Shown here: positions 4,451-57,020 of the stretch, piece by piece
How positions within the stretch are numbered: position 1 is the stretch's first letter
How the letters are laid out: each line of letters opens with the position of its first letter
Assembly (NCBI GenBank): GCA_008632985.1
Contig: QPGO01000020.1
Span: 124,001 to 188,000 of the forward strand
DNA length: 64,000 nucleotides
Direction of reading: 5' to 3'
Source of the DNA: Psammoneis japonica
Lineage: Eukaryota
The notes under the pieces: generated by a model
The model's database searches: none
What the model was told of the DNA's origin: nothing
Seen by the model: only the letters and a program-made list of their open reading frames with translations
Position numbers and translations under genes: made by a program

Positions 4451-4786
4451 TGACGGATGAGATTGTGGAGAGCAGCAACCAGCAGCGGCAGGTATCAGAA
4501 ACAGACAGACTGCCTGAAGATCGAGCGATCAGTCTGTCAAGGAGATCCGTGTGCACAATCAAGACTTTGGCATGCGACCAGGGCGCATCAGTCAGATCGC
4601 AACAAATGCTGGACGCATCGCACCATGTCGATCACTCGTCGATGACACATCGCTCTCACTGCTGTTGAACTCTCTAGAAGCAACTCTGGACGAGGTGCAA
4701 CGCAGCAAGGAGTTTGCTCAATCATTGTGCAGCAGTGTGCTGACTCTGCCTTCCTGTACACCTGCTGCATGGAGAAGAACCTTACA
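4451..4786 (+). repeat. LTR-like sequence (TG...CA), partly TpA-mutated
   Basis: Starts TGACGG and ends CCTTACA. Shares ordered blocks (gatgagattg; gcctgaa..gatcg.gcgatca; ttgaactctctaga; gcaaggagtttgc...gtgtgctgactctgc; atggagaagaacct) with 10038-10545. Confidence 0.6.
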
Positions 4787-7700
4787 GTGTGTGATGGTTT
4801 TTGGTACAAACAGTGTGCAGGTGAATGATGAGCATGCATTTGAGTCACCTTCACCAGCCACCCATGAAACTTTCAAGCAGTCAAGCTTGCATGTTCATTT
4901 CTTCTCCTTGGCCATCCCCAAATGCAGCTTTGAGTGAATTGCTGCCCTGATGTTGCAATGTGCACCCGCCTTTTGCACCTGCAGCAACCACCCCAGACCA
5001 CAAAGAAGAAGCCAATGAATCTTTAGCCCTGCTTGCATGGTCAACAATTTGTGTGTGCATTGAATGGTTGAATCCCCTCAACTTTCTTTCCCCGTTCCTT
5101 TTGCCAGGCCACAAACATGAAAAAATTGTCGGGAAACATGCCAGTGCCTCCCGTGCATCAAAGCACCTGCAAAACCATTCATGGCTGATGCTGTGCCTTC
5201 TGCTTTGCCAACTGCAATTGTTCAATGCATGGAAACTGCACCCTGCATTGGACAAAATGGCAATGACATTGACTGTTTCCATCTGGCCCTTCCACTTGTC
5301 CTTGCAGTGCCCCTGTGTTGGACAAAATGACAACCATTCTGTTGGGTCAGTGGACTGTGGCAAACCACCACAAAACAAACTCTGTTTGCTGTTGCTTGAT
5401 GGCTGGATTACATCCATCATGGAACATGATTCAGTGCAGCCCAGCACAATCACCAACGTCAGTGAATGGTCTGCCACAAACAGTGTGGCTGTTTTTGTGG
5501 ATGGGACGCCACAGAGCAATGCCTTCTCCTGCACAGGAGTGAAAATGCTGTTTGACTGTTTGGCAGAATCATGATCCAAATGCTTGTGGGAGGAGGCCCA
5601 GCCTGAAGAGCTTGACATCAAACTTGCATGGGCCTCTGATGTCCTCTTTCTGTGGCAGCAATTGATTCCTTGTCACTTCCTGGTCAGAGCAATGTTCAAC
5701 CTGTGCCAGCATGTCCAGAAAAATCTGCATGGGAATGGGGTTGCTTCAACTGGCTGATGTGACAAAGAAGCAGAGTGGACAAGACAGCAGACTTGACATC
5801 CTGGAAGTCATGAGTCCTTAGCTCACTCTGTTTGGGTGATGCAGTGGTTGCACTCATGGTTTTGGTGACAAATTTGCCCATGAGTCAGACTCGATTGGCA
5901 CAGTGTGGAATGTGACATTGACAGAAATTGCTGAACACGACAAAACTGGAGATGTTGCACATGATTTCTGGCACTTTCCAGTGTTTTAGAAGTGTGCTTC
6001 TCTAGAGTTGGCTGGGAGATCACCAGCTTTGGTCAGATTGTGGCTGACAAATTGCCAGTTTTAAGTCACTTGAGGCCTGGGTCTCACAATTGCCTCTCAT
6101 CCACTGTCAGCCAGTGCTGCAACAATTGTCATGTCATTGTCACCACCTTTCCCAATCTTCATCCATCTGCTGTTCATCTGCTGTTTGGCAGAGCAATCCA
6201 TTCTGCATTTTCATTGAGAATCTGGATGATCAGATCAGGAGCAAGATGGAGTCCCAGTGGATTTTGCAGGCACAGTCAGACCACATTGCTCAGGTGCTCT
6301 GATCAAATGTGCCTTTTTCAAGAAGCATTTGAGAGCACTTGAGCCCTTGGAACAAGGTGGTGCAGCAAACTGCATCTTCATTCAAGGGGAGCTTGGCAAA
6401 ACACACGGCTTTGCATCCATCATCCAACCCTCATCAGAGCATCAACCCTCATCAGCAGTCACCACTGTGGCTGAGCCCTGCTGAAAATGTGCCAAAGCAA
6501 CATGCCAAACATGATTTCTGGAGTTGTGGAGCCACTGATCATCTCCACTGTGATCCCAAAACACAGACAATCATCTGCCCCCATGCCCATGAACCCATCA
6601 TCAAGGAAAGGGCAGAGCACACTTGCAAGAGGACTTCAACGACCACGTGAGGAAATGCCACAACTCCCTCTCACAAGGGTGACTCCAATCCTCTCCCCAG
6701 ACTCAAAGCAGAAAAAGGGTGACATTTCTTGCCTCCTTGTTGATGCCTTCAAACAGAGCATCACCCAAGCCAACAACAAACCATCAGATGTCATGACACT
6801 TCTCACCCTTGTCCACAAAAAAGGCACTCAGAACCCACCTCAGTTGTCCATCCTGGTCAACAACTCTCTGGTGCCCCACATCATCCTGCAGTTGGGTCAG
6901 CAGGATGCCAAGTTTCAGCCAGGTGTGCACATTGTCTTGAGCAGGTCTGGCGCTCTCATCTGCGGCAATGGCAAATGTTGGATGCCCGCTGCCAAACAGT
7001 GTCCAGAGCTCATCAAGAGCACCCCGCTTGCCAAAGGATTGGCGGCCCCCCATCATGTTGTCAGGTGTTGTTTGCAAAGGCTCTGCATTGGACATTGACA
7101 TTTCAACCAACATGCTGGAGGCAATCAAGCTCCACCTCCCCTGCATGGCCAAGAGTGGTCACCCCACCTCTCTTTAAAATTGTGGTTGGCACAAGTGTGT
7201 TGGTCAACTGCATTGTTGGAGTGAGTTTCATCTCTGCCAATGAACTTGTCATGGATTTCAAGGACAACATTGTGGAGTCAAAAGTGCTTGATTGCCCACC
7301 ATTCCCAATCAAATTCCAAGCCCCACTTTGCTCTTCACAAAAACTTCTTGCTGGCACCACTGAACCAACAGACAAAAAAAATGTCATTGCCACACATGCT
7401 TTCAAGAATTTTGCCAAGGCCTTTGTGGCCATGCAAGCATCCAATGCATCTTGACCTGTCCCAATGCTTGTCCATGGTGGGTTGCATCCCTCTTGCAGTG
7501 TGCACCTTGGTGGGTCTCCCTCAGATGACCAGTGCAAGCAAGAGCCAAAAAAACACTTGCACCTGCTGCCTTGCATTTCAACATTGTCATCCAAAGGCTG
7601 TTGAGCCTTTCAAGCGATCCCTTCATGAAAAACTCACCCCATCAACTGCTTTGAAGTTCAATGGTCAAATCAAGCTGTCCAATGGTCCAAGTGCTGAACT

Positions 7701-10037
7701 GGGTGAGAAAGACTTCATCAAGACCATCTTGGACATCGTTGAGTCACACAGGCAGGAAACCTTTTGTCATTTTTTAAGAAATCTGACAGCAAGGTCATGT
7801 GGCCATTCAACCATCTTCATGCCATCACTGTCAGTGACCTGGAAAAAGAGCACAGGACTTGCAACATGGCTTCTGGTGACGAAGGCTGCAACAACCATGA
7901 GAAGGATGACATTGGTCTCTCTCAAAACTTCCAGTCAAGAAGTTTTGCATCCTCACAGAAAAATGTTCTGGAAGAAGATCAAAGTGAAGTTCAGCCATGT
8001 CAAGAACTTCAAGGACCTGCCAGGGTTGGTGTTGTTCATGATGGCCCTGGACACTTGCAATGCAAGTGCTTTTGTTGATGTCAAGTCTGCCATGGACAAG
8101 CTCAAGGCATTGTCGCTCAAGTCCTGCCCAGGCAAGGATTGCACCAAGCCCATGGCCAAAGCTCTGCATTTGGTCTGATTCATGCAGACAGGCTGTGCAC
8201 CACCGATTGACACAGACTCTGTTGTTTTAACCAAGTCTTGCAAGACATCCTCCAAGTTCTTCAGCCATGAAGTGAAGGAGAAGGATCTGCCATTTCTCAA
8301 CACCAAGATGGACAACAATGTCATCACAAACCAATTTTGTGGCAATGTTCTGCTTTCAAATTTGTCTTGACCTTGTAAAAACTGTGACTCATTTCATGCT
8401 GCAAATGGGTGAAGCAATCCATGAACACAACTTGTTTGCAAGCCACACTTCTTTTCCACCCTCAGATTTGACACTTGTGTGTTTGCAATCAATCCAGTGC
8501 AGATGCAAGCCAGGGAGGAGCTCTGTTCACTGCTGTTTGTCATCCCACAGAATGACAGCATCAGAACAATTTTCTCAACATTGTTTGGCTGTTTTTTCAT
8601 TGAGCCGCATGGCAACTTCATTCTGCACTTTCAATCCCATCTGTCCAACTCTTTCCCATTTAAGAATGGTTGGCTGAATGCATCACAGTTGCTTTGTCAA
8701 AGTCTTAAAAATGTTTGTCTGGTCAATGTCATTGCTCAAACAGGTTTGACCATGTGACAATGATGTTGGATTCATCCTTGATGTGCTCACAAACCACAGG
8801 TGCAACAGCGTGTTTGCGCAAAACTTGACTTGCTGCCATTCTCTGACAGCCTCTTTGCAACTCCAAACAAAAGGTGGCACAACAAGCCTGCTGTTGCATG
8901 GGACTTGAAACAGCAATTGTTTGGACACCTTGTCTGCCACATCAATGTGGTTGTCGGCTCCAGCAGCTTTTTGACCACAAAATCTCTGAGTTTTGAAGGT
9001 GGTGATTTGGGTCTGTGCACACTCATCCAGAGCACACCTTCCATGCCAGTTTGAAGTTGCTCAAGGCCTGGGTCTCATGGCTGCAAAAAACGATGGAGTG
9101 CAAGTGCCATCTCTGCCACCTGGCCAAGGTGCAGAGAGCCACCTTGACTGCTCGGACTTGGGACCGGGAGGCCTCATTGGCTGGATTGCCAAGACCAGTG
9201 GCAAGCTCATCAGCAATGGTCTACCTTGGCAGCCAAACTCCCTGAGTTGAGCCATGCTTCCAAGGGCACCAATGCGATGAAGCATTGTTGCAGATGTGGT
9301 GCGTGCATTTGGATGCATCAAGTGCACTTGTCCTGTGTGCAAGAAACAGCACAAAGAAGCAGCAGATCAGAAAGCAAAGGCCAACAAGTCCAAGAGCACT
9401 GACATGGAATTGGACAAACCACCACCCAAGAAAGAGAAACCTTCTGAGCCTGCCTGGAATTTCATCAACAAAGGTCTTGCCCTCACTGACAACAAAGGCA
9501 TGCTCTGGAAACAGTGTGACAAGTGTGTGAACAAGGACACGGGTGAGATGGGTGTGCACCAAGATCACATGTCTGCTGAGCATGCCAGCAAAAGCTCTCC
9601 CACCTCTGATGCTGCTGCTTTGGCAAATCCATCTGCTGTTGCCAATCCATCTTTGGCCCCCCTGATTGGCCCCTTTGAGCAGATGATGGCTCTGCCAATG
9701 GACAAGCCCTCAGACCCCAGTGAACTTGTCTGTTGTGGCATGTGGTGTGCTCCTGTCAAAGATTCTTTAGATGGCCCCTGTTTGACCACTTCAGCAACCT
9801 TTGTTCCTGCTCCAACAGCCAAGAGAGACACTGTTGCAGCCAAACCTGCTGCTCCACTCTTGGCCAAGATGGCTCTTGACCCCAAAGACGCTGACAATTT
9901 CTGCAAGTTTCCAATGATGACAGTGCAATGAACAATGTGATTTACACACCGCACTTGCAATCCAAATCGATCTGGGATGCGATGGAATCGCAAGAGCTCA
10001 ACGGTGCCAGAGTGCAGTGCAGCATTGCAACAGGAGC
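4787..10037. mobile_element. Degenerate, hypermutated retrotransposon mosaic (copia-type gag relics on + at ~7560-8330 and ~9280-9930; possible integrase/RNase H fragments on -)
   Basis: Gag-like motifs LKALSLKSCPGKD...MQTGCAPP and WKQCDKC...GVHQDH. A minus-strand ATLFVADHS segment resembles an integrase ATVFVDH motif. The region is flanked by related LTR-like repeats, and TpA and CpG are both nearly absent. Confidence 0.55.
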
Positions 10038-10545
10038 TGCCACGATGAGATTGGAGAAATGGTCTCTGCTAGCTGGCTAGAAGCAGCCAGCACTACCAGC
10101 TAGCTAGCTAAACTCTAGCTACTAGAGAGAGAGAGAGAGCCAGCTAATAGATCTCTCTACTAGGGCTAGAGTAGAGTAGACTCTCTACTCTGCTCTACTG
10201 CCAGCTACCGCACTAGAGTAGAAAGGGTACAGCATGCCGCAAGAGCATGCCGCAATTTTTGCCTGAAAAGATCGCGCGATCAACATGGACGTTGTGCGCA
10301 CGCACCACGCACAAAATGCATGTCAAAGCTCAAGCAAAGCGAATGTACGCAAAGACGCGCTGCCCTAAAAGCTGCCCGTTGATTGAACTCTCTAGAGAGC
10401 GAATAGATAGTAGAGAAGTGCTGTAGTAGCTCTAGAGGTATAGTATGGCAAGGAGTTTGCACAATCGTTGTACAGTAGTGTGCTGACTCTGCTTCCAATG
10501 CACCTTGAACCTGCCGTACTGCGTATGGAGAAGAACCTGATCGTG
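10038..10545 (+). repeat. LTR-like sequence, largely unmutated (TAG/CTA-rich, contains (GA)n)
   Basis: Related to 4451-4786 but keeps TpA where that copy has TG/CA (ttgTAcagTAgtgtg vs ttgTGcagCAgtgtg). Confidence 0.55.
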
Positions 10546-10549
10546 TGCC

Positions 10550-12328
10550 ATGAGAAGGTGTACCGCTAGGCACCAATCTGTGACGAGGAGTCGTTTTGGC
10601 AGGCAATCTGCTGTGGCTATTTTAGGAGGACATCGGACCTTGACGGCCAGCCCAGGTAGAGGTTGGACGAGCAGTCCATCAGATCGAACGCGACTGTATT
10701 TTCAACAACCTTCTTCTTCTAAGAATGGGAATGGGAAATCATGGTCTCAGTCGGCATTGAGCGTTGCTCAACGAGCATTTTGCAGCTCCACGCAAACAAA
10801 CGAGAAGGATCCTATGCGGCAGACAACCCTCTTTCTCTCCAACGTGTTGCCCGATGATTCGGCCTCAGCTTCTGGATCTCGCACACAGTCGTTGATTCGG
10901 TATTTTTCCAGAACGTCAGATGTCATTGTCGCCACAGGGATGCCGGAAATGGAGACTTTCAGCAAAGATGAAGGATTAGCAGGCAGTTCTACGAGTTCAC
11001 AATCCTTACGACAGCAACATGCGTCACCGCACCATGTTCTCCGAGCATTAATGGGCCGCTTTAAAGAGGATTCAAGTCAGACTAAGCTGCTCTTTCATCG
11101 CTTACGGACGAATCGATCAGAAGATTACCAATGCCTCCAACGTCGGTTTCCTCGGCTCGACACGGTTGTCTTTGATCGCTTTTACACAGAAGAAGCCCAT
11201 TCCTTTGCCATTCGTAAACACTATCCTATGGCCTGCTTGGTATTGGATATGCAAGACATGCATTGCTTGCGTAGAGCCCGTCAGAGTTTCGTGGAATCGT
11301 GGGATTTTTTTTCCTCCCCAAACGAGGATCCCTTGGCGTGTGTACAAGAGGCATTGGAGCATCGGCCTGATGCTTCAGATACTCACTTGGTACGAGAACT
11401 TTCCAGTATCTACCGATGTGATATTGCCTTGGTCTGTTCTCCTGTCGAGTATGACATTCTGACGTCGCACTTTAACGTTCCGGCCCGTAAATTGTGTGTA
11501 GCTTCCTTTTTTGTCGAAAAGAGAGTGCAACACTTTCCATTGTCAACACCACGTTTTTCCGCACCCCCGCAATTGGTATTCTGTGGTGGATATCGCCATG
11601 CACCCAATCTGGATGCAGCTCGCTGCTTGATTCGACATATTTGGCCACGGCTTGAGTCACAACTCCCGCAAGGATCAACCTTACACTTGCACGGTGCCTA
11701 CACCCCGCAGCAAATGCTTCAAAAGCAAAAACAACAAAGCGGTTTGGTGGTGCATGGGTTCACACCCAACTTGGATGATGTGTTTGGAAAACAAGAAACG
11801 GCTGACTCTAAGTATGTTTCGGACTCTCCTGTTGTTGTGTTGGCGCCTTTGCGATTTGGTGCGGGCATCAAGGGTAAGATTGTGGATGCGTGGAGGTATG
11901 GATGCCCCGTGGTGACAACTGGTATTGGCAGTGAAGGAATGACACTGGCAAATCGTACTTCAGGGGAGGCTTTGTTTGGGGGGAGTATTTCCAATACAAC
12001 CGACGAGTTTTGTCAAGCGGCGGTGGAGCTCGCCAGCAATCCCATGGCCTACCAACAGGCGCAAGAAACAAGTACTTTCTTGTTGGAAAAACTCTATGAT
12101 GCCGAAACGATTTGGAACGGGGTCAAATCTGCATTGAATATCCCAAGTAAACGCACCGACAGAGAGGACTGGTTGAGGCGGGGTCGCGCCACAGACTACA
12201 CTAAAGCTATGCTGTGGCACAATTCTGCGAGAAGCACGGAGTACTTTTCCAAGTGGATCGAACTGAAAGAGGAACGACAACGCCAAGAACAAGAGCATGA
12301 AAGAAGCGAATCAGATGGGATAGAGTAG
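10550..12328 (+). CDS. Glycosyltransferase, GT-B fold (GT4 / Glyco_trans_1_4-like)
   Basis: Motifs FDRFYTEE, LDMQDMHCLRRAR, GGYRHAPNLDA, PLRFGAGIKGKIVDAW..GCPVVTT.IGSEGM. Intronless ORF; the true start may be the downstream Met of MRQTTLF. Confidence 0.85.
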   Translation: MRRCTARHQSVTRSRFGRQSAVAILGGHRTLTASPGRGWTSSPSDRTRLYFQQPSSSKNGNGKSWSQSALSVAQRAFCSSTQTNEKDPMRQTTLFLSNVLPDDSASASGSRTQSLIRYFSRTSDVIVATGMPEMETFSKDEGLAGSSTSSQSLRQQHASPHHVLRALMGRFKEDSSQTKLLFHRLRTNRSEDYQCLQRRFPRLDTVVFDRFYTEEAHSFAIRKHYPMACLVLDMQDMHCLRRARQSFVESWDFFSSPNEDPLACVQEALEHRPDASDTHLVRELSSIYRCDIALVCSPVEYDILTSHFNVPARKLCVASFFVEKRVQHFPLSTPRFSAPPQLVFCGGYRHAPNLDAARCLIRHIWPRLESQLPQGSTLHLHGAYTPQQMLQKQKQQSGLVVHGFTPNLDDVFGKQETADSKYVSDSPVVVLAPLRFGAGIKGKIVDAWRYGCPVVTTGIGSEGMTLANRTSGEALFGGSISNTTDEFCQAAVELASNPMAYQQAQETSTFLLEKLYDAETIWNGVKSALNIPSKRTDREDWLRRGRATDYTKAMLWHNSARSTEYFSKWIELKEERQRQEQEHERSESDGIE

Positions 12329-22345: not shown

Positions 22346-22899
22346 CCTGATTGGTAATTATGTTTGCCTTTCTGCTGCCTGCTTTTTGCGGATCAAGAAA
22401 TAAATAATATCTCTGCAGTGTAGTGGTGTGTAACGGCGCTTAATGGTTGCAGTGCGGTCGCTGTGGTGCTTCTTCTGGGCTACCTTGCACTCTCTTAATA
22501 TGTAGTAGCTAATTAAAAATATGAGGAAAGAACCGCAAACATCAATCCCCAAAAAGGGAAGACAATACATAGACTAAAGAAGTGCAGGTCAAAGAACTGA
22601 AACAGGATCCATGGCCGTCAAATCAAGCAAGGAAGCCGCCATCGCTATCTTCCGGTAAAAATTTCGGATCGAGATCTCCGGCTCCGCCCGCTCCATCGCA
22701 GATCGACTGTCTTTCGCCCGCCCCACACGCTCCTGGATCTATGATCATCTGACTGGTGTGACATGACTTCTCTGACGACACGGATTTGAACTCTTGGACT
22801 TTGCAGCATTTTTCGAACCTAAAAATTGCTGCCAGGACATGCAATTATTTGCCACATTGAGCAGCAACATTGTAACAGAGTGCATTTTCTGTGCAAACT

Positions 22900-38298: not shown

Positions 38299-38521
38299 CG
38301 AGTGAAATCCGATGCATCAGAGTCTGTCTGGTGCACTCTACAAGTTGAAGTGGCGGGACTGTGACGTGGTGTCGGTGGAAAAGTGACCATGACCATCGAT
38401 TGGTCTCACTTGTTGCATCCGTTGTAGTTGCAACAGGCCTAGAAGCATCTCATCGGTTGTGTTTGCGTTGTCGCACTAAGACTGTGAGTGGCTGAGCCCA
38501 CTCGGCAGCTAGATTTACTCG
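38299..38521 (+). repeat. 5' LTR (CGAGT...ACTCG)
   Basis: Same length as, and alignable without gaps to, 44600-44822. Confidence 0.95.
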
Positions 38522-38811
38522 CTTCATCAGAGCCAAGTCGTTGGCTCAAGTTTAGTTTGACGAAAAGCGTTGAACAACTGCAGAGAGACGGTCGTGCCAT
38601 TGTGGCAGGGTTGTGGCGACGAATGCCGGTCGATCGAAGGGTGCATGATGATCATCATCACCTGGCATCAGTGAATGCACGAGCAGTGAGGAGACATGGC
38701 CAGTCTCCATGCTTCTAATGGCTGTGTGTTATCGTCAACACAAACTGAGACATCCTTTTGAATTTATGATTTCTCACATGACTCTGTTTTCCCACTGGTG
38801 TGGGTGCCACC

Positions 38812-44439: not shown

Positions 44440-44599
44440 GTTTCTTCCCTGGTGAGGGTTTACACCATGCACAAAGGATTGGCGGCTTTTCCCTGGCAAG
44501 GGTTTTACGTCGATTAATGAGTCAAGATGTTTGAGCTAGATCACTGATGCAGCATTGGGTCGAATTGTGCCTTACGAGTCAGGTACATTTCGAGGGGAC

Positions 44600-44822
44600 C
44601 GAGTGAAATCCGATGTATCAGAGTCTGTCTAGTGCGCTCTATAAGTTGAAGTGGCGGGACTGTGACGTGGTGTCGGTGGAAAAGTGACCATGACCATCGA
44701 TTGGTCTCACTTGTTGCATCCGTTGTAGTTGTAACAGGCCTAGAAGCATCTTATCGGTTGTATTCGCGTTATCGTACTAAGACTGTGAGTGGCTGAGCCT
44801 ATTCGGCAGCTAGATTTACTCG
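44600..44822 (+). repeat. 3' LTR, retains most TpA
   Basis: Matches the 5' LTR and is preceded by a polypurine tract. Confidence 0.95.
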
Positions 44823-45858
44823 GTACAATGCCGCTCGGCCTTTTCGAGTAGTGGGGGGAGGTATGTTGTTGTTTCGAGCGCGGAAACAATGAGTCCGAGC
44901 TTTCACGTGTTGTTTTGTGTATCCTCCACTTATTTTCTATTTTAGTCTCCGATGTTGAAATTGAGCAGCTTCAAATGGCTCGGGGGCCTTTGGCGAAGGT
45001 GGCACTTTGTACCATGTAGTTACAAGAATTCATTGCTCGAGAGCATTTGCATAAAGGGTTGGGCAGCGTCGGTGCTCCGATTGTCAGTCGAATGTTTCAA
45101 TGCACAAGTGATGGAATGATTGGGTGAGTATGATAAGGTGTACAATTTTGCTAGGTTGGACATCAACATGTTGTCAGGTCTGACTCTTCATTGATTCTAC
45201 GCTTTCTCCAACTCTTTCACAAACGCTTCCCCAAACGCTTTCCGAAACTCCAACAGGTGCAATCAAGCCCGCAAGATTGCCTGCATTCCTTTTCCGTTCC
45301 CACACGCACAAATTACGTCTCTTTACATCATTATGATGGTGGTCTTTGTGCCAATGCTGATGCTCTCATACATCAACAACATTGTCTTTGGCGCGTTCCT
45401 CAACTTTCTTTACAGTCCTTGCTTTCACTGGTCTTTACGAAGTTTCCCGTGAACTGGAGAATCCGTTTAAGAACGTGCCAAATGACATTCCTCTAAATAA
45501 CTTTCAGGCCCAATTCAATGAAGCCCTGATGACCATGTACAACGGATACCATCCAGACTCTTTTTGGGTTGTTCAAGAAGTGAGTGGCCCACTTCCATCT
45601 ATGATCTTCGAGGATCCTGAGCAAGAAGAAAGGTTAGAGGCGGAGGAAAAGGAAGAATCGATACACAGAGAGGAGGGAAAGCTTCCGGTTTTGCGTGCCG
45701 ACGATCGTCACGAACCCCCCCTATCGTCAGTGGACGACAGCTTGTTGACTCATGATTCTTCCGGGGAAACGTATCGTGGCGCTCCATTGGTTGCTGGAAC
45801 TTTAGAGGCCGAAGTTTCAGCGAGCGAAGGCAACAACGATGAAATCAAAATGAGCTGA
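44823..45858 (+). pseudogene. Bestrophin-like gene, 3' part
   Basis: YNAARPFRVVGG, ARGPLAKVALCTM*LQEF (premature TAG), NQARKIACIPFPFPHAQ, GLYEVSRELENPF.NVPNDIPL. Introns at ~44861-44945 and ~45124-45257. Confidence 0.85.
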
Positions 45859-46295
45859 TCGTATTAATTGACTTTCCCTAAGGATGTTCGACAACATTAC
45901 GTAGAAGTAGATACAAGTTTTTCACGCAAGAGCTGTGCGGCAATAGTGTGTGACATTAATTATCAACATTTTGGGCACTTTAACTTTCAAAAATTGCTAT
46001 GGAGATGGCAGTTTCCCTCAGGGTATTATTACTAACGTACCAGGAAATAACCACCTAGAGGTAATTGGCAGACAAGTATATGCGGGTGGGCGAAACGTAG
46101 CAGGCTTGAGTTTCGCAATGGAATAGCGGCAATGTTGACTTGTAACTAGACGAGACGAAAATTAATGGCTCACGAATCTGACAGTACAAACGATGAAACA
46201 GCCCTACAGGACCTTCCTCTCTCTAGAGTACGGCGTTACCGGTAGTGGTCTACAAATTTAAGATTTGAGCGGGCCCTGCAGGTGCAAGAGGCATT

Positions 46296-46763
46296 CTAGA
46301 ACTCTGCTTGTCCGTCTTGCGTCACTTTGAGAAGCTCTAAGGTGAAGACGAGAACAGCACCACCTGGGATCTGCCCCCCAGCGCCACGGTCGCCGTAACC
46401 TAACTCAGAAGGGATGTAAAGCTCCCATTTTCCACCCTCTTTCATGAGCTGCAATGCCTCCTTCCAACCGTTAATAACTTGGTTCGGAGCAAAAGTGAGC
46501 GGCTCCCCGCGTTTGTATGAGCTGTCAAATTCAGTACCATCGATCAAAGTTCCTGCATAATGGCACAAGCACGGCGTGTTAATCTTCGGCGACGGACCGG
46601 TTCCAGCACGAAGTTCCTTGTAGAGAAGGCCCGACGGAAGCTCCACAACCCCGTCCTCCTGCTTCTTAGCTGCTAGAAACTTCAGTCCCTCAGGATTCGT
46701 CCCAGCATGGACCAAGCCAAAAAGGGCAACAGTAACGAACATAAGCAAAGAGCGAATCATCAT
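46296..46763 (-). CDS. FKBP-type peptidyl-prolyl isomerase (Mip/FkpA-like) with signal peptide
   Basis: LPSGLLYK, HYAGTLIDGTEFDSSYKRG, VINGWKEALQLM, YIPSELGYG, VLVFTLELL. Ends QAEF, a possible ER-retention variant. Confidence 0.95.
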   Translation of the reverse strand: MMIRSLLMFVTVALFGLVHAGTNPEGLKFLAAKKQEDGVVELPSGLLYKELRAGTGPSPKINTPCLCHYAGTLIDGTEFDSSYKRGEPLTFAPNQVINGWKEALQLMKEGGKWELYIPSELGYGDRGAGGQIPGGAVLVFTLELLKVTQDGQAEF

Positions 46764-47022
46764 ACAGACAGAAGAGAGGATTAAGCGAGACGTATGAATG
46801 AGAGATGGAGAGATACGTACAGTATCTATTAGCTCTAGCTAGAGAGTAGTCTCTTCGAAGCAGACAGCAGACAGCCGAAGATTGAAGACTGAAGACCGAT
46901 CGATCTCGTCTCTCGTCGTCGAGCAAAGAATTCATCATCGATCGCGTCGCGTGAGGCAGGAAGATATCCGAGCTCGAAGCTCGATCTCTGGAGATCTGAC
47001 GTGCGTGCGTTTCATTCGGGAT

Positions 47023-47360
47023 TGTTTTGGCCTGAAGGCTATGAGATAACGGTTGTTCCCAAAGTGAATGTTATGGGGCAATTGGTGCTCCATAAGTGAA
47101 GGGGTCCTTTATCATCAAAAACGATTCTGATTGGCTGGTTGTCTGCCGGTCATAATGAAAAAGTCACACTAAACTCACGATGTGTCCCACGTGTGCGTGG
47201 TTGGTTCGGTTCTCGGAAAGCATCCATAAGACTGTTTGGTGATGTCTTTGACATTCTGAGGGCACTGGTGTAATGCCGGGAAATCCACTCGAGGATCTTC
47301 TCACAATCTTGATTGGGTTGCTGTTTACCACTGATTTATCTTATCGAGACACTTTTAGCA
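47023..47360 (+). repeat. 5' LTR of second copia, retains many TpA
   Basis: Alignable to 55093-55413. Confidence 0.9.
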
Positions 47361-50300
47361 CGTTGTCAGAGCCACACTCTAACTGTCTGAGACCATGGCA
47401 TTTGCTGCAGCACAAACCACCTCTTTCTTCGAGGACGATGACCAGGTGGGTTTGCCCAACGCAGCTCGTGTGCAGCTGGTGGCGGAAGGACTGGACCAAG
47501 TGAGCGACCTCACTGACTTTGATGAGGATGGTCTGAACCAGATCTTTGAGAACCTCAAGCGTCCTGGAGGCACCGTTCCACACCCCAATCCTGGTGCAGC
47601 TGCTGGAGCGGTCATTCGGACACCAGCCTTTGTCGCAGGTGCGAAGAGCATGGCGCGCCTCAAGGTTGCAAAACAGGCAGCGCAGTGCCACAAAACTGTT
47701 GGTCGTGAATTGTTGGCAGCTAACATGCACTGAAATTTTGTCATCAAGAACTTCCAGGAAGCGTGGAAGGCTTTGAAAGAAAGGAAGAGCGAAGATGATC
47801 CTGAAGCACCAAGGACCACCAAGTCGCTTCCGACTGTGAAGTGGACCGAGGCCTTTCGTGATCACCTGCAGCATGTGATCGGGACTCGGGCTGTCCCACT
47901 GTCATGCGTCACCCAAGAAACGGTTGCAGCTCCTGCGGCGGCTCCTGCACTGGCCATGAACCAACCTCACTTGGACGAACACAGTTCTCTTGAAGATGAG
48001 CCAGTGGCATGAGCCAGTCACACTCACCCTTTGTTTTGAGAGGACAACTCTGCAGTGTGTTGTTCTCTAGAAGAAGCCACCCGCAGAACCTTCTGTGTGG
48101 CTTCAATCAAGCCCTTTCAATGCAGGAAGGATGGAAGGGGTGCATGGACTGCACCAATGACACAACATGCTGGCGAGGATAAATGGGCAGCTGAGCTCAA
48201 GAAGCAGGAGGACTTCATCCACAATTGGAAGTGGAAAGCCCAATCAAATTTCTCCCTTGACCACTTTGTCTCTCAGCACCACAATGTCTTTGTCTCCATG
48301 CAGCAATGTGCTGAGTGTGTCACCTTCCAGCTCCCGAACGAGCACACAAGAGTCGCGCACCTGTTGGATGCCATCAAGACCGCTGATGCTCCACTGCAGG
48401 CCGCAATGGCTCTGGTCCACAACGACACAGGACCAAATGGAAAATGCAGTGACTTCAAGGCAGCGGCAGCACACATCTTGTGCCCCATGACCCTGTGGCC
48501 AAGAAACGAGCTGCCAAATGGCCTCACGCTGAAGTTTCTGGAATTGACTCCAGTGCCATTAAGTCTGGCATTGGCAAATCCGGGGTGGAGCTGCGCCATC
48601 ACACTCATTGTGAGTGTCAGCAATTGAACTCTGACCAGAAGGCCAAACTGAAAGAATGGCGCTCCTTGGAGGGCTCTTCTGCCATGAAGAAAAAGGAGGG
48701 CAAGCACAAGACACAACCAGCTGGTTCGCAGAAGAAGATCAAGAAGATGATCTTGGAAGCTGTGGCATCTGAGCTAGCTTCTCGCGAGAAGAAAGATGAA
48801 AAAGCCAACACCAGGTCTAACAATGCCAAGGTGCGCACTTGCCTCCTTTCCCTTGTTCAGGCGGCATGAAACTCGGCTCCGGCTGCCGTGTCGCTGCCTC
48901 CTCTGCCACCACCGATGGTGACACCGGCCCCGGCACAAGCCTCGGCGGTTCAGTTCAAGCCACCCTGGGTGATGTTGCAGTCGATCCTGCGGCGTGCCAG
49001 CAACAAGAAATGAAACGTCGGGACGGTGCTGCACTCCAATGTCTCCTTGCTTGAGGGGAGAAAATGTGCCATCTGTGCCATGGAATCACAGTCGCTGATT
49101 CCCAATCATTCTGTTCTAAAATTTGTTGCTCGCTGTGCAATCTCTGACATCACTGCAGAGACAAGTGAAGAGACTTGCAATGAGAGTGAAACGCGCACTG
49201 AACTGGATTCTCATGCGAACATGGTTGTGGTTGGCAAGGGGTCCCATGTGTTGAACGACACTGGTTGCACAGCTCAAGTGTCAGTCCTTTCAGTCCAGAG
49301 TGCGAGTCGATGAAAGATGTGAGAATGGTCAATGCTCTCTTGGCATGTGACTGCCCGCACTCCCTGAAAACTTGCTTGCTTGTTGGTCCTGCACAATGCC
49401 CTGTACATTCCGACAATGGACCACAATCTGTTGCCACCCTTTGTGCTGCATGAAGCAGGGGTGATTGTCAATGATGTTCCCAAGATGCAAGTCCAAGGAC
49501 GGGAACAAATGGAGGACAATCATGCCCTTCTGTTCCCGGATTTGAAGGTTACAATCCCACTGTCCCTGTGGGGTGCATTCTTGCACTTTCCATCTGGACG
49601 ACCCACAATGGAAGAGATGCAAGACACTGATGACGTGCTGGTCCTAACTCCATCTGGGCACTTGTGGAATCCTCACTTGGATTCCTGTGCTCGGAATGAG
49701 GAAAGCATGTTGGACTGGGAAGGGAACATGTCGGACAAATGTGGTCAGATCAGGATTCTGGTTGAAGACCTGCCTGACAAAGACGAGGAATTACAATTGT
49801 CCTCAATGATGTCGAGTGTTGAGTCTGGGATTGTTGACTCCAAGTTGTCAGTTGTTGATTGCTTTGAGGCTCATGATGACCTGAGTGGATGCACAGGAGT
49901 CATGCGGGAGGCTGACAACTCCCATGCCGTCATGTGTGACATCTTGGCCACTCTTGATTGCATCTCACTTGCCGAAGGTCCACAGGACCGCCGCGACATC
50001 GGCGTTTTTGCATCCTCTGTAGGATCCACGATGGCGGGACTTCAAGATGACTCAGATCGGGGTGACAATGTTGATTTTGATGTTTTTGAGGATGTCCAAC
50101 TTGAAGACATTGCAGACAATCTTGTGGAGCATTTTGAATCTGATCCCAAGGTCCAAGTTGGAGGAACTGCTGCCTCCAAGTCTAAGGGTGTGTCTCCAGA
50201 ACACTTGTCCAAGGTCTGGAGAACAAGCACCAAGGATGCAGAGCAGACTGTGGACAACACCTTTCAACTTCTTCAACGCACCCAAGACCCAGCTTTCTTG

Positions 50301-51513
50301 AGGAACTGTTCAACAAACAACAGGATGCTGTGGTGTTGATGAACTGCCCAGCATTTCTTCATGGACACTTTCTTTGCAAGTGAGAAGGCTGGGAAGTCCA
50401 TGCGAGGACACTCATGCATGCAGTTGTTTGTCACTGACAAGGGCTTTGTTTGTGTGGTGCCCATGCATGCTCAATCAGAGACACCTCAGGCACTCAAGAT
50501 GTTTGCCAAGGAAGTGGGTGCACTGGAGGCGATCACATGTGACAGTGACCCAGCACAGAAGTCTGATGAGATTCAACAATTTCTTCACTCCATTGAGACC
50601 AGCCTTGGGCTGCTGGAGGAAGGAACACCATGGTCAAACCATGCTGAACTGCACATTGGCTTGTTCAAGGAGGTGGCACGCAAGGACATGAAAGAGTCCT
50701 TGTGCCCTTTGCCTTTTTGGGACTGCTGCTTTGAGCGACAGGCAAGAATTGACAACTTGATGGCCCAGAACCTGTTCCAACTTGAGGGGAGGAACCTGCA
50801 CTTCTCTGTGACAGGGGACAAAGGTGACATCTCCAACCTTGCTCAATTTGGATGGCATGACTGGTGCTTCTTCCGTGAGCACACCAACCCCTTCCCATTT
50901 GATCGCGAAGTTCTCGGGCATGTGCTGGGCCCCACCAAAGGAGAAGGAAACAACATGGCTCAGTGGGTGCTGAAGGGCAATGGCAATGTTGCACCACGAC
51001 GTTCCCCCTCTCAGTTGCTGAGATGAACAGTGACACTGAGAAATGCAAGCTTGAGATTTTTGACCAGTGCATTGAATCAAGCTGGGGCTCTGCAGCTTGT
51101 CCTGTGTCCTCTGCAGGCAAGCAGTTCATTCCGCATGGGGATGCACACGAAAAGCCCAGAGATCTCCTGAATTTGATGACCCAGTTGACGCTGCTGGGAA
51201 TGCCATTGACCCAACCCCCTTGCATGACCAGCTCATCCATGCTGAGATTGCTCTGCCTCAGGGTGACAAGTTGAGGCAGGCCCGTGCAATTGGCCGATCT
51301 GTGGATCCAGATGGTTGATCGGTCGGCACGTGCAATGACAACCCAATCATGAACACTTTGGTTTACAACGTCGGGTTTCCTGATGGGAGGTGAAGGAACA
51401 TGCCGCCAACGTCATTGCTGAGAACTTGCTTTCTCAAGTTGACTCAGAGGGCTGCACTCTCAACCTTTTTGACAGCATGCTTGATTTTGCCAAAGATGAT
51501 GCAGCAGTGACCA

Positions 51514-54308
51514 AGGACAACATGTGCACCAAGGTTGGCAAGCAGAAACGGTTGTGCAAGACGATGTGCAGCTGGAAATTGCCAGTTCTGTGGAAGGATG
51601 GGACCAAGTCCTGGGTCTCCCTGAAGGACATGAAGGAATTGCACCCAGTGGAGACTGCGGAAATTGCCAAAGCCAGAGGTGTTGATGATAAAACAACTTT
51701 TCGACAGCAGATGCCGCACACCCTTCACAAGCGAGATGTCATTGTATCTGCAGTCAAGGCACGTGTGCAACGTGTGACGCACAAATGTGGGGTCAAGCTT
51801 CCCAAGACAGTGGAAGAGGCACTTGAACTTGACCATCAGAATGGCAACAAACTTTGGGCACAAGCAATCAAGAAGGAGATGCGCGATGCGGGTGTCACAT
51901 TTGAGATCTTGGATGATGACACTCCGACTCCTGTTGGTTGGTCCAAACAGTCAGGTCACCTGACATTTGATGTTAAGATGACCATGGCCAGGAAGGCCAG
52001 ATGGGTCCTCGATGGACACAAGACTTCAAGTCCCGAGGGTCAACGTGCGCTGGCGTTGTCTCCAGGGAGAAAGTGTGTGCATTGCCCTGATGTGTGCTGC
52101 CTTGAACGACATTGACGTGATGGCAGCAGACATTCAGAATGTGCACCTTCAGGCTCCTTCATCCCAAAAGCACTGCATTGCATGTGGCCCAGAGTTTGGT
52201 CTCAAGAATGTTGGCAAGCAAGCCCTCATTCATCAGGCTCTGCATGGTGGCAAGTCGGCGGGACGAGATTTCCAGAATCATCTGCGTGCGTGCATGTCCC
52301 ATCTTGGTTTCAAGCCTTGCAAGGCTGACCCTGATGTGTGGATGCATGAAGCACTCAAGTCGAATGGCACGGAGCACTGGGAACATGTTCTCCTCTACAC
52401 CGACGATGTTCTGTGCATCTCCAACAATGCTGAGGAGATTCTACGAGGGGAGATTGGCAAGCACTTTCCATTGAAGGAGTCATCAATCGGACCTCCAAGT
52501 CTGTACCTTGGAGGACACCTGTGAAAAGTGGAACTTGAGAATGGGGCCAAAGCGTGGGCATTCAGTTCCTCCCAGTGCATTCAAGCATCGGTTAAGAATG
52601 TCGAGACTTTCCCGGAGTCAAAGGGTTTGAAGTTGCCTGCCAAGGCTCCAACCCCACTTGGCAGCTCGCATCATCCTGAACTTGACACAAGCAAGGAATT
52701 GACTCCGACCCATGCTGCGCACTGTCAATTGCTCATTGGCATCCTGCGTTGGATGGTCAAGCTGGGGCATGTTGACATTTGTCTTGAGGTGTCTGTGATG
52801 TTGTTGCACTTGGCTGTGCCACAAGAAGGACACCTTGATCAGGTGTGCCACATCTTTGCGTGTCTCAAGAGGCACCATGACACCGAGATGGCATTTGACC
52901 CCACCTGTCCAGGACAACATGTGTGCCAAAATTGGCAAGCAGAAATGTTTGTGCAAGATGATGTGTGGCTGGAAATTCCTTGTTCTGCGGAAGGATGGGA
53001 CCAAGTCCTGGGTTTCCCTGAAGGACATGAAGAAATCACACCCAGTGGAGACTGTGGAATTTGCCAAAGCCAGAGGCATTGACGATGAACTGGCTTCTTG
53101 ATGGTGGGTGCCATGCACCCTTGGCAAGCAAGATGTCATCGTGTTTGCGGTCAAGGCACGTGTGCAACGTGTGATGCACAAGCATGGGGTCAAGCTTCCT
53201 GAGACAGTGTCAGAGGCACTTGAACTTGACCGCCAGAATGGCAACAAACTTTGGGCACCAGCAATCAAGAAGGAGATGCGTGATGCAGGTGTTGCATTCA
53301 AGATCTTGAATGATGACACTCCGACTCCCAATGGTTGGTCCAAACAGTCAGATCACCTGACATTTGATGTTAAGATGACCATGGCTAGGAAGGCTGGATG
53401 AGTCCTAGATGAACACAAGACTTCAAGTCCCAAGGGGTCAATGCATGCTGGCATCATCTCCAGGGAAAGTGTGCGCATTGCCCTGACGCACACTGCATTG
53501 AATGACATTGATGCAATGGCAGCGGACATTCAGAATGTGCACCTTCAAGCTCCATTGTCTCAGAAGCACTTCATCACATGCGGCCCAGAGTTTGGCCTCA
53601 AGAATGTTGGCAAGCAAGCCCTCATTTGTTGGGCTCTGCATGGTGGCAAGTCGGCGGGACTGGATTTCCAGAATCATCTGTGTGTGTGCATGTCCCACCT
53701 GGGATTCAAGCCTTGCAAGGCAGACCCTGATGTGTGGATGCGTGAAGCACTCAAGTCGGAAAGCACGGAGCACTGGGAGCATGTCCTCCTCCACACGGAC
53801 AATGTTCTGTGCATCTCCAACAATGCCAAGGAGATTCTGCAAGGGGAGATTGACACAAGTGCTTCCTGTTGAAGGAGTCATCGATTGGACCTCCAAGTCT
53901 GCACCTTGGAGGACACCTGCAAAAGGTGGAACTCAAGAATGGGGCTAAGGCATGGGCACTAAGTTCCTCCCAGCATGCTCAAGCATCAGTTGAGAATGTT
54001 GAGACATTCTTGAAGCACAAGGGTTTGAAGTTGCCTGCCAAGGCTCCAACCCCACTTGGCAGCTCGCATCATCCTGAACTTGACACAAGCAAGGAATTGA
54101 CTCCAACCAATGCTGCACACTGTCAATCACTCATTGGCATCCTGCGTTGGATGGTCGAGCTGGGGCATGTTGACATTTGTCTTGAGGTGTCTGTGATGTT
54201 GTTGCACTTGGCTGTGCCACAAGAAGGACACCTCGATCAGGTGTGCCACATCTTTGCGTGTCTCAAGAGGCATCATGACACTGAGATGGCGTTTGACCCC
54301 ACCTGTCC
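51514..54308 (+). repeat. Direct duplication of ~1397 bp of pol (51514-52910 and 52911-54308)
   Basis: aggacaacatgtg recurs at 51514 and 52911; both copies end gaccccacctgtcc. Confidence 0.92.
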
Positions 54309-55092
54309 TGCCATTGACAAAGCTCTCTTCACGCAACAAGACTGGACAACTTCCAAGTTTGGTCTGGCAACAGCGGAAGAAATGCCTGATGACATGCCTC
54401 AAGTGAGAGGCTTTGGCATGATCATGCATGCTTCCGTGGATGCTGATCATGCAGGCAACTCAATCACTTGCCAATCTCGGACTGGTTTTCTCATCCATTT
54501 GAACTTGGCACCTGTCCATTGGATGTCCAAGAAGCAGACAAGCATTGGAACCAGTTCATTTGGCTCAGAGTTTGCCAGCATGAAACAATGTGTGGAGCAC
54601 GTTTGTGGGCTTCATCACAAGCTCTGGATGATGGGGATCCTGGTTGTAAGACCAGCTTGTGTCCATGGTGATGACCAGTCTGTCCTGGCAAACACGTCTG
54701 TCCCCAACTCAATGTTCAAGAAGAAATGCCACAGTCTGGCTTGCCACTTTGTGCGAGAAGGTGCGGCCTGAGACAAATGGCAAATGGTGCATGTCAGCAT
54801 GCATCTCAATCCAAGTGATCTTCTGACCAAGGCACTCCCATCAGGGGAGAAGCGCAATCGGTTTGTCGGAATGATCTTGCATCATCTTGAAGGGAAGGTG
54901 GAGCAGGCTGTCCTGCTGAACCACCTGCCTGTGCAGAGGGTTTCACTGGGAATTCCCTGCCAATGAAGTGGTTTTTTTGGAATTCCTCACTTGATGAATG
55001 TTTGCATGTGAATTTTGCCATCATGCAATGATGTTTTGTCCCTTTGCATGCAATCCAGCTTTATGATGCAACCAAGTCTAGATTGAGGGGAG

Positions 55093-55413
55093 TGTTTTGA
55101 CATGAAGGTTGTGAGATGACCATTGTTCCCCAAGTGAACATCATGGGACAATTGGTGTTCCACAAGTGAAGGGGTGCTTTGTCAGCTAAAACGATTCTGA
55201 TTGGCTGGTTGGTCTGCCGGTCACAATGAAAATGTCACACTCAGCTCACGATGTGTCCCGCGTGTGGTTGGTTTGGTTCTTGGAAAGCAAGACTGTTTGG
55301 TGATGTCTTTGACATTCTGAGGGCATTGGCATGATGCTGAGAAATCCACCCAAGGATCTTCTCACAATCTTGATTGGGTCACTGTTTGTCACTGATTTGT
55401 CTCATCAAGACAC
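55093..55413 (+). repeat. 3' LTR of second copia, TpA-depleted
   Basis: Follows the PPT; similarity to the 5' LTR ends a few bases before that LTR's terminal CA. Confidence 0.88.
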
Positions 55414-56317
55414 GTCCCCATGTGTCCAACTCAGACAGTTTGCGCAAACTGTCTGAGTTGGGCACACCAGGACATTCAATTAGGGAGTTGATTGTTTTGC
55501 GTGATGTTGTCCGTGCCAGTTGTTGTTGCTGGGCCTCAACAAGCAAGAGGCTTTGGACATGCCATTGCAGCTTCCCTTTTGTCAAAAATGCTTCTGAAAA
55601 GCATCCACCAATTGAGTGTTTCTCTCATGGCATGGTCGCAATGCAGTTTGTTTGTGAAACTGAGCGTGACTGCTTCTCCTCTCTCTGAATGAAAAAAAGA
55701 AAAAATGGCTGACCAGACACTTGAAAGTGGGGTGGGTGCAATTGTTTTTCCAAGCTGAACAAATTGGATGATGAAGCAGAAGAATTTGGTTGAATTGGCC
55801 TTGTCACTTCAACAAACAATGCAGGGACATTCTCTTCTTGGGCACCGGAGCTCTCCTGACTGGAAACCAAGCTTTTGCAAAAGATTTCCAGAGAGGCTGT
55901 TAACCTCAATGTGACACCAAGCTTGTGGCTTGGTGGTCACTTCATTCAGGAGATTGCAAAGTTAAAAAAGTCATCCAGCACCCTGCCTTTGTCACCTCCA
56001 CACTGTGTTGTTGTTGCCACATCTTCTCTGTGCACAACAGAGTGCAGCCATTTCCAAGAGCCAACATGTCAACAAGAAAGTGTTGTCAGAGCTGGCACTG
56101 GCATGATGAATCTTCTAAGTGCAATCAGCAGTGCTGGCACACAGGTGCAGGGACAGGCGAGCACTGTGGGTGGAGGGTCCAGAGGTTGGAGAGAGTTGCA
56201 CTTTGGGCACAAGTGCAAATTTTGCATGCATTTCTGTGGGAGCAGTGCTGTGTGTCATCACGCAGGGAGATTGGGAAGATCCATTGTTCCAGCATGAAGA
56301 GACACAAGGTGTGACAA

Positions 56318-57020
56318 TTGCGCAACAGTTTGCAGCTGCTTTCCTGTTTTGTGTTTGCTGCAGCATCATTTCCATCAGGTGAAAGAACAATGTCCTGCAA
56401 GCACGTGTTTGCCATCAGCATGTCTGCAGAAGGGAAATGTGCGCATGACAGCAACCTGCAATTTGCAGCCAAATTGCTGCTCAAAAGCTCCACCCAGCAG
56501 CAGAAAGGCTCCAACCACTGGCAGCTGCACATCCAGCAGCAGCACAAAGGTTCCAGCCACTGCCAGTGCTTGCATCACAAAGGCTCCAACCACCACCAGT
56601 GTCAGCAGCACACAAAGCTCAACCAGCCACAGCAAGTGCCAGCAATCCAGAGGCTGCAACCACTGCCAGCATCAGCATCAGTGCAAAAAATCTAGCCACT
56701 GCTGGCACCAGCAGTGAAAAGGCTCTGGCTGCCACCAGCTCTGCACCCAATGGCACAAACAAGGCTCCAACTGCCACAGAGCCAGCTCTGTGCTCCATGC
56801 CCAGTGGTGCAAAGGCTCCAAAGCCACCAGCTCTGTGTCCAGCAGTGTGAAGGCTCAAACCACCGCAAGCACCAACAAAAAGGCCCTGCACACCACCAGC
56901 TCCACATCAAAAGGCTCCAACTGCCACCAGCTCCACACCCAGTGGTGCAAAGGCTGCCAGCTCCATGTCCAGCAGCATTGCAGAGGCTCAAACAGGCCAC
57001 CTCCAGTTGCTGCAGGTGTG
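56318..57020 (+). pseudogene. Relic of a gene with Pro/Thr/Ser-rich repeats (KAPT.TSS type)
   Basis: About 10 degenerate aaggctcca...caccagc units reading TKAPTATSSAPSG-like in shifting frames, preceded by a hydrophobic leader-like stretch. TpA-depleted. Confidence 0.45.

Follow-up and report, generated by a model that had tools for sequence, protein, structure and literature searches.

Near-complete loss of TpA from repeat-rich blocks of a Psammoneis japonica contig points to regional, TpA-specific mutation after insertion

A 64-kb stretch of the genome of the diatom Psammoneis japonica (NCBI GenBank assembly GCA_008632985.1, contig QPGO01000020.1, positions 124,001 to 188,000 of the forward strand; hereafter the window, comprising 64,000 nucleotides and numbered from its first letter) was found to contain four sharply bounded blocks (4.7–10.0, 22.9–33.4, 34.5–44.4, and 47.4–57.0 kb) from which the dinucleotide TpA (TA) has largely disappeared, with observed/expected ratios (o/e) of 0.03–0.23 inside the blocks and 0.64 outside. 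The change is specific to TpA, symmetric between the strands, directed towards TpG or CpA, later than the insertion of the elements concerned, and confined to these regions. The existence of in-place mutation specific to TpA is considered very probable. The complete reading favoured here, i.e., a regional, post-insertion process that converts TpA to TpG or CpA in blocks of repeats, is held with less assurance and is regarded as on balance probable. Such a region-directed process would operate at the level of DNA and on either strand after insertion, would exceed background substitution many times in rate, would outpace the normal decay of CpG (presumably methylated) in the same blocks, and would halt at stable boundaries beside genes. 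As changes at TpA create no new stop codon, a struck retrotransposon would keep long reading frames and yet lose its conserved Tyr, Ile, and Leu codons.

Dinucleotide o/e ratios were computed per 1-kb bin and per block across the window. The blocks and the interval between the second and the third of them were delimited as follows (word depth refers to sequencing run X1, described below).

4676–10000: block D1, TA o/e 0.05, CG o/e 0.12, a degraded element that includes a formerly coding region.
22874–33380: block D2, TA o/e 0.04, CG o/e 0.10, unclassified repeats.
33381–34501: island of normal TA between D2 and D3, TA o/e about 0.55, part of a high-copy repeat with a word depth of about 5000.
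34502–36300: block D3a, TA o/e 0.04, CG o/e 0.14, high-copy repeat with a word depth of 4900–5400.
36300–38296: block D3b, TA o/e 0.04, CG o/e 0.78.
47380–57026: block D4, TA o/e 0.06, CG o/e 0.34, interior and 3' long terminal repeat (LTR) of an older Copia element and about 1.6 kb beyond.

TA o/e was 0.04–0.06 in the five stretches D1, D2, D3a, D3b, and D4, compared to 0.64 outside. At the resolution of 1-kb bins, values of 0.00–0.08 were obtained for 5001–10000, 23001–33000, 35001–38000, and 48001–57000, values of 0.11–0.21 for 38001–44000, and values of 0.43–1.0 for the flanking bins, which bears out the four kb-scale, nearly TA-free domains with normal flanks proposed in an initial annotation made from the sequence alone. 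The stretch from 22875 to 23765, described there as lacking TA, corresponds to an actual run of 893 base pairs (bp) from 22873 to 23766, and the end of the third domain, placed there at 45.3 kb, had to be moved to about 44.2–44.6 kb according to the positions of TA. In total, the window contains 1414 TA dinucleotides, of which 88 lie in the saturated blocks (3.0 per kb) compared to 1184 outside (44.1 per kb). The longest runs without any TA measured 1181 bp (50183–51364), 1113 bp (6062–7175), and 1073 bp (31950–33023).

The loss of TA is accompanied by a near doubling of TG and CA (o/e up to 1.57–2.00 inside the blocks), with similar totals of the two products in D1 (595 TG, 623 CA), D2 (1207 and 1240), and D4 (1069 and 1003). 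Other dinucleotides, including AA, AT, and TT, remained near their outside values, the exceptions being GC (o/e 1.38–1.40 in D2 and D3a vs 1.11 outside) and AT in D3a (0.65 vs 0.90 outside); AA was not depleted (1.05–1.33 inside vs 1.13 outside). Base composition was 0.51–0.54 GC where TA alone is lost. Since CpG is also depleted in most blocks (o/e 0.10–0.14 in D1, D2, and D3a, and 0.34 in D4), the excess of TG and CA has two sources; the TA loss and TG/CA gain described in the initial annotation are thus real, while the co-occurring CpG loss (0.10–0.34 in most blocks) had been overlooked. TA loss exceeded CG loss in every block, and the two losses are separable because 36300–38296 combines a TA o/e of 0.04 with a CG o/e of 0.78. 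The adjoining younger Copia element (38297–44822) likewise has a TA o/e of 0.23, with 82 TA left, and a CG o/e of 0.85.

Direction and timing were read from repeat pairs of which one member lies inside and the other outside a block. Two pairs belong to LTR elements which, judging from their LTR pairs and from a gag-pol region with a Copia-type reverse transcriptase, are members of Ty1/Copia; the third consists of the terminal repeats of D1. The features concerned are listed below.

4690–4805, plus strand: inner, mutated terminal repeat of D1, aligning to 10430–10560.
10430–10560, plus strand: outer, unmutated partner terminal repeat of D1, just upstream of and running into the start of a glycosyltransferase open reading frame (ORF).
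38297–38521, plus strand: 5' LTR of the younger Copia, mutated, paired with 44598–44822.
38782–40239 (gag) and 40240–44439 (pol), plus strand: reading frames of the younger Copia, open, TA o/e 0.11–0.21.
44598–44822, plus strand: 3' LTR of the younger Copia, unmutated, outside the block, adjoining the gene-bearing stretch 44.8–47.0 kb.
47018–47352, plus strand: 5' LTR of the older (second) Copia, unmutated, upstream of an FKBP gene, with 11 TA and 10 CG kept.
55088–55413, plus strand: 3' LTR of the older Copia, mutated, paired with 47018–47352.

Both LTRs of an element derive from a single template and are identical at insertion. In the younger Copia, the 15 TA of the outer 3' LTR correspond to 6 TA, 6 CA, and 3 TG in the inner 5' LTR, and no change runs in the reverse direction; among the 12 differences in 225 bp, 9 are at TA, 11 at TA or CG, and 1 elsewhere, and 10 are T>C or A>G. 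In the older Copia (47018–55413), the 11 TA of the outer 5' LTR are represented in the 3' LTR by 6 TG, 4 CA, and 1 TC, none having been kept, while 4 of the 10 CG were kept and 9 transversions were counted among the other differences. In the D1 pair, TA or CG in the outer copy (10430–10560) appears as TG or CA in the inner copy (4690–4805). Throughout the three pairs, the change was always from TA outside the block to TG or CA inside the block and never the reverse. Such differences between LTRs of the same element show that mutation took place in situ after insertion.

Further duplications were in agreement with this. The D2 segment 30543–30966 is a mutated copy of 33893–34325, in which 10 of 14 TA are now CA or TG. 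The older Copia contains a 1.4-kb tandem duplication (51514–54308, 87.7% identity) in its reverse-transcriptase region, and 31 TG<->CA double differences were found between the copies, as would be expected had a single ancestral dinucleotide been resolved independently in each; this duplication is older than most of the changes at TA and CG. In a control duplication located outside the blocks, 18 of 23 TA were kept and no TG<->CA double differences were seen. For tests of strand and context, 78 polarised TA events were pooled, 37 of them non-coding. They comprised 41 changes to TG and 37 to CA, which, along with the LTR pairs and their complete lack of reverse changes, upholds the direction that had been proposed for both strands.

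Several known causes of dinucleotide loss were compared with this pattern and rejected. Repeat-induced point mutation (RIP) of ascomycete fungi resembles it as a transition-only, context-dependent, in-place degradation of repeats that can reach past element borders. It differs in that RIP changes C:G to T:A, mainly CpA to TpA, and thereby makes TA and stop codons and lowers GC, whereas here TpA is nearly absent, CpA and TpG are in excess, and the change runs from TA to CA or TG, with GC not lowered (0.51–0.54 where TA alone is lost) and no new stop codons possible at TpA. Decay of methylated CpG is seen alongside it, as CG>TG/CA in D1, D2, D3a, and D4 and between duplicated copies. It was rejected as the sole cause: it cannot remove TA, TA is lost without CG in 36300–38296, and 9 of the 12 differences between the younger LTRs are at TA. 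The statement of the initial annotation that neither RIP, on account of its opposite direction, nor decay of 5-methylcytosine explains the loss of TA therefore stands. According to the accessible part of one source, diatom transposons are CpG-methylated and diatoms carry RID-related DNMT4 genes of unknown function (PMC9998398). GC-biased gene conversion was likewise discarded, as it would not be TpA-specific and the CG>TG/CA changes run the opposite way.

The repeat pairs also bear on the explanation that the pattern is intrinsic or was acquired before integration, either because the families are TA-poor by nature or through ADAR-like adenosine-to-inosine (A>I) editing of RNA prior to reverse transcription. 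Editing of retroelement RNA is known in animals, and pre-integration editing by ADAR or APOBEC shares with the present case a deaminase-type transition hypermutation of selfish elements; moreover, the Copia interior could not be polarised base by base, as no copy of the same family was obtained. Pre-integration editing is, however, marked by a one-strand bias and identical LTRs, whereas here the products are strand-symmetric (41 vs 37), the LTRs of one element differ by 9 one-directional TA>TG/CA changes, and non-retroelement repeats are affected too. In addition, loss of conserved tyrosines was seen in 0 of 80 relatives, TA is present in other genomic copies at places occupied by TG or CA in the window, and the blocks cross element borders. 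Editing of RNA before integration was thus rejected, and the explanation as a whole is considered largely refuted and hardly credible.

The coding consequences were examined in the younger Copia, which has 225-bp LTRs, a gag ORF, and a pol ORF of 1399 amino acids (aa). The latter gave an RVT_2 match (E=3.2e-07, 30.6 bits) just under the Pfam cut-off of 31.6 and, among the matches listed, 50–59% identity to 120 full-length relatives from metagenomes. With one exception (P0194, 1205 aa, covering 80%), these 120 listed relatives were 1273–1838 aa long, carried PF07727, and covered 92–99% of the length. Gag and pol are separated by a single in-frame TGA at 40237–40239; one relative (P0129, 1838 aa) comprises gag and pol in one protein, and its tblastn match spans this stop.

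A consensus was derived from the 650 columns at which 80% or more of 80 relatives agree, and departures explicable by a single base change were sorted into event classes. Pol departs from the consensus at 115 of the 650 columns, and 93 departures can be explained in this way: 42.8 by TA>TG (26.8) or TA>CA (16.0), 9.0 by CG>TG/CA, 3.0 by other A:T>G:C changes, 7.3 by other G:C>A:T changes, and 30.8 by transversions. Of the 62.1 inferred transitions, 42.8 are TA>TG/CA, with CpG transitions in addition, and A:T>G:C changes were counted 42.8 times at TpA vs 3.0 times elsewhere. At the 29 columns of conserved Tyr, 15 Cys and 7 His were found and only 2 Tyr were kept, compared to a retention of 25/25 for Trp, 30/31 for Phe, and 40/43 for Glu; in none of the 80 relatives did Tyr>Cys/His exceed 1/30. 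All five codon examples cited in the initial annotation are present (CSSVVS at 42991, NACL at 43081, APHGLK at 43177, FPAE at 43219, and WAAELG at 43687), and their ancestral residues occur in the 80 relatives (L and Y of ALYGLK 80/80 each, Y of YSSVVS 80/80, Y of NAYL 76/80). Repair of the polymerase-eta type with a WA signature, which had been offered as a candidate mechanism, does not fit, as AA is not depleted (o/e 1.05–1.33 vs 1.13) and few A:T>G:C changes fall on sites other than TpA (3.0 vs 42.8).

A change at TpA creates no new stop codon, the only possibility being TAA>TGA, i.e., stop to stop. This is why the 1399-aa frame has remained open with its conserved tyrosines nearly all gone, and the protein of the younger Copia has been inactivated through missense changes. 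Owing to missense without stops, hypermutated copies evade domain searches: the ORFs of the older Copia gave no Pfam match at E<=0.01 despite 25–47% tblastn identity to Copia pol relatives.

Read support was obtained from run X1, the sample of which may be the source of the assembly (98% of sampled words from 2001–12000 present, library type not on record); a word depth of about 60 corresponds to single-copy DNA. Contigs from this run with depths of 58–73 reproduced TA-free pieces of D3b and D4 (322–597 bp) with 0–1 differences, the matched stretches of D4 being 47551–48147, 48196–48517, 49064–49443, and 50126–50449. Where other genomic copies in X1 differ from the window, 329 of 404 variant places are transitions. 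Forty listed places amount to 34 events: 6 adjacent CA<->TG doubles, 3 with TA elsewhere and TG/CA in the window (reverse 0), 4 with CG elsewhere and TG/CA in the window (reverse 2), and 19 other changes. At 36571 and 36573 in D3b, for instance, other copies have TA and the window has TG or CA, and in D3a, other copies differ from the window through CA<->TG doubles. The read data argue against a consensus or base-calling artefact as well as against intrinsically TA-free families. A sequencing or assembly artefact, e.g., modified bases miscalled as G or C, would gain from the fact that the reads come from the likely source of the assembly and from a library of unrecorded type. It is nevertheless given almost no credence: contigs of single-copy depth give the same TA-free sequence, the changes show a coherent history (LTR pairs, CA<->TG doubles, saturation graded by element age), and inosine would in any case be fixed as G after one replication.

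Two further observations were made in the reads. A contig of X1 (depth 67.6) joins 38293 to 44829 and omits 6535 bases, that is, the whole younger Copia; it represents either an allele without the insertion or a paralogous copy of the flank, and the depth of 150–250 at 37.2–38.4 kb fits either. Run X2 contained 0.35 of the sampled words of 2001–12000 and covered mainly the FKBP gene (46194–46849, in a 656-base contig with a depth of 471), whereas depth fell to zero in D3b, in the interior of Copia, and in D4; this would fit transcript-like data, although the run is not recorded as RNA. Contig cover was also lacking for parts of the stretch in a third run, X3.

Genes outside the blocks, encoding VPS9, glycosyltransferase, FKBP, and ankyrin-repeat proteins, have normal TA. 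The positions of those that serve as landmarks are given below.

10541–12328: glycosyltransferase ORF, Pfam Glyco_trans_1_4, normal TA.
46299–46838, minus strand: FKBP gene, Pfam FKBP_C.
61702–62874: ankyrin-repeat gene, outside the blocks, normal TA.

Block edges do not coincide with element edges. In the younger Copia, mutation extends from the 5' LTR to about 44.2–44.4 kb, with the last few hundred bases and the 3' LTR spared. In the older Copia, it begins 28 bp interior to the 5' LTR boundary and continues through the 3' LTR and for 1.6 kb past it, with the 5' LTR spared, and the edge at 34502 lies within a copy of a high-copy repeat. All three spared terminal repeats adjoin genes: 44598–44822 and 47018–47352 flank the FKBP stretch, and 10430–10560 abuts the start of the glycosyltransferase. 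As the LTR pair of the older Copia has also diverged elsewhere, including the 9 transversions, its boundary has long been stable. From these edges we infer, rather than observe, that the target is a chromatin state and not sequence homology.

A literature search, with subscription journals and bioRxiv supplements outside it, returned TpA hypermutation only in one preprint, on the chlorarachniophyte Bigelowiella natans, and none in diatoms. Within that scope, the earlier remark that no description was known in diatoms holds; in the chlorarachniophyte, the same signature was reported in 2026 by Mettrop et al. (10.64898/2026.01.13.699255). In the accessible text of that preprint, integrated giant-virus and virophage DNA undergoes A:T>G:C changes at TpA only: of 231 mutations recorded in two integrated viral regions, 230 were A>G or T>C and every one of these lay at TpA, and the rate measured for integrated viral DNA was about 6e-7 per site per generation. 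In addition, 124 TpA-depleted, CpA+TpG-enriched clusters with enrichment of reverse-transcriptase and DDE domains are described there, an ADAT2-like deaminase is proposed as candidate enzyme, ADAR is stated to favour a 5' U, and neither diatoms nor CpG are mentioned in that text (10.64898/2026.01.13.699255).

As far as that text goes, the two cases share the restriction to TpA, the TpG or CpA products according to strand, the confinement to normally flanked blocks of DNA that is foreign or selfish, a lasting footprint in which TpA is depleted and CpA+TpG enriched, and the reverse-transcriptase content. They differ in the host (Rhizaria there, a stramenopile here), in the main target (a single-copy viral insert there, LTR retrotransposons and multi-copy repeats here), and in extent (rho 0.45 in the viral region there, near-complete erasure with rho 0.03–0.06 here). 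CpG is also lost in most blocks here, and the evidence is historical (LTR pairs, consensus), whereas a rate was measured there. The diatom process is of a kind described once, in another lineage, and is more saturated here, acting on retrotransposons alongside CpG decay.

The course of the block edges would also be expected if no dedicated mutator existed and a ubiquitous TpA lesion or replication error were left unrepaired, or were misrepaired, only in compact, late-replicating repeat chromatin: the edges ignore element edges and stop near genes, spared LTRs flank a gene stretch, and a spared repeat abuts a gene start. This explanation is considered unlikely. Conversion is near complete and highly specific (42.8 at TpA vs 3.0 other A:T>G:C changes), and the loss of 9 out of 15 TA within 225 bp that otherwise differ, TA and CG apart, at a single site speaks for a very large excess in the local rate. 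With AA undepleted, the WA pattern of polymerase eta is absent, and in the accessible text on B. natans, the process is on in only some lines and is read by its authors as regulated.

Under the favoured reading, the agent would be an enzyme recruited to silent chromatin, and the likeliest candidate would be a TadA/ADAT2-type adenine deaminase acting on DNA, with A>I read as G. The natural substrate of ADAT2-type enzymes is A34 of tRNA, which always follows U33. Adenine deamination as the chemistry is put forward tentatively. The main alternative lies on the thymine side, where oxidation of T in TpA by a TET/JBP-type enzyme to 5-hydroxymethyluracil or 5-formyluracil would lead to mispairing with G and thus to T>C, perhaps with action on 5-methylcytosine in CpG as well. 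TET enzymes can oxidise thymine and 5-formyluracil mispairs with G; in D1, D2, D3a, and D4, TG/CA is the end product of the loss of TA as well as of CG, and the strand symmetry (41 TG, 37 CA) suits either chemistry. A single activity is, however, not required, as the two losses are uncoupled in 36300–38296 (TA 0.04, CG 0.78) and in Copia (0.23 and 0.85), and the only published analogue proposes adenine deamination. Thymine oxidation is accordingly rated as improbable.

A bolder proposition, which is viewed as speculative and less probable than adenine deamination as such, is that diatoms possess a chromatin-guided DNA base editor with strict TpA specificity, acting on adenine or thymine in double-stranded DNA and homologous to or convergent with the chlorarachniophyte process. 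Such an editor would cause mass missense without stops and might represent an old genome-defence arm of the SAR lineage (stramenopiles, alveolates, and Rhizaria) beside cytosine methylation.

The bases surrounding TpA were inspected for a preference of the mutator. Among the 88 TA surviving in saturated blocks, 22 lie in TTAA (25%, vs 4.4% outside) and 26 in CTAA/TTAG; the most depleted contexts are ATAC, ATAG, and ATAT, and TA with a 5' A or a 3' T is almost gone. The mutator may thus favour certain flanking bases. The 78 oriented events gave p=0.33 at position -2 and p=0.026 at +1 (a bias of Tyr codons), and no clear pattern emerged from the 37 non-coding events. The motif claimed for the process is TpA and nothing beyond.

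Several points weigh against the favoured reading. The hints of an extended context conflict, as 4-mer gain and loss estimates disagree with the oriented events. Events were not clustered by strand (23 runs vs 20.5 expected), and no processive one-strand tracts were detected. Because TpA is palindromic, A>G and T>C chemistry are indistinguishable by sequence. The terms "enzymatic," "silent chromatin," and "defence" stand for inferences. The read support stems from one sample, possibly the source of the assembly, and is thus not independent. Transversions, attributed to ordinary lineage divergence, make up 30.8 of the 93 pol departures, and the consensus is for this reason not the true ancestor. 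No copy of the same Copia family from P. japonica was found in a search of 5.8 billion proteins (full-length matches up to 59%, a 201-aa piece up to 66%), so the Copia consensus rests on relatives of 50–59% identity together with the logic of the LTRs. Finally, the corresponding coding test of D1 was weak, with 24 single-base departures comprising 6.0 of TA type, 5.0 of CG type, and 4.0 other A:T>G:C changes.

The remaining contents of the blocks were characterized as far as similarity allowed. The longest ORF of D1 (7225–8175) had 104 relatives at E<=1e-3 (best 5.9e-21) in a library of 1.84 billion proteins; none of 9 relatives tested contained a Pfam domain, and the ORF probably encodes an undescribed diatom transposon protein. 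In D2, a tandem array (29150–30582; 473 bp in 3.0 copies, 95% matches) was found, the copies of which differ mostly by transitions; for one D2 ORF, the ESM Atlas returned no usable match. A Pfam scan of the 150 ORFs of at least 70 aa in 4.5–38.0 kb gave no credible match, two weak ones, in D2, being chance-like and below curated cut-offs, although this is of low informativeness, since the recognisable older Copia was also negative. Very high-copy families occupy 33601–37200, with word depths of 4900–5400 at 33.6–36.0 kb and 27000–45000 at 36.0–37.2 kb, and many alternative contig joints were seen around 36255–36740.

Outside the blocks, the glycosyltransferase had its best named matches in Nitzschia, Pseudo-nitzschia, Cylindrotheca, and Thalassiosira (31–47% identity). 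A segmental duplication (57007–57590 and 62540–63119, 91.7% identity) has its left copy beginning exactly at the end of D4 and its right copy overlapping the 3' end of the ankyrin-repeat gene, which contains a tandem repeat of 99 bp in 2.9 copies at 62225–62507. Pfam scans detected no deaminase domain among the ORFs of the window.

If the finding is confirmed genome-wide, P. japonica would be the first diatom in which selfish DNA undergoes TpA-specific hypermutation, and its lineage the second overall. Over the report on B. natans, the window adds action after insertion as recorded in LTR pairs, near-complete saturation, stable boundaries on the side of genes, and separability from CpG decay. 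For annotation, this means that hypermutated copies keep long frames, drop below domain thresholds, and get miscalled as genes or left unclassified. More broadly, the finding bears on transposon control in ecologically dominant algae and on the existence of natural eukaryotic DNA adenine editors.

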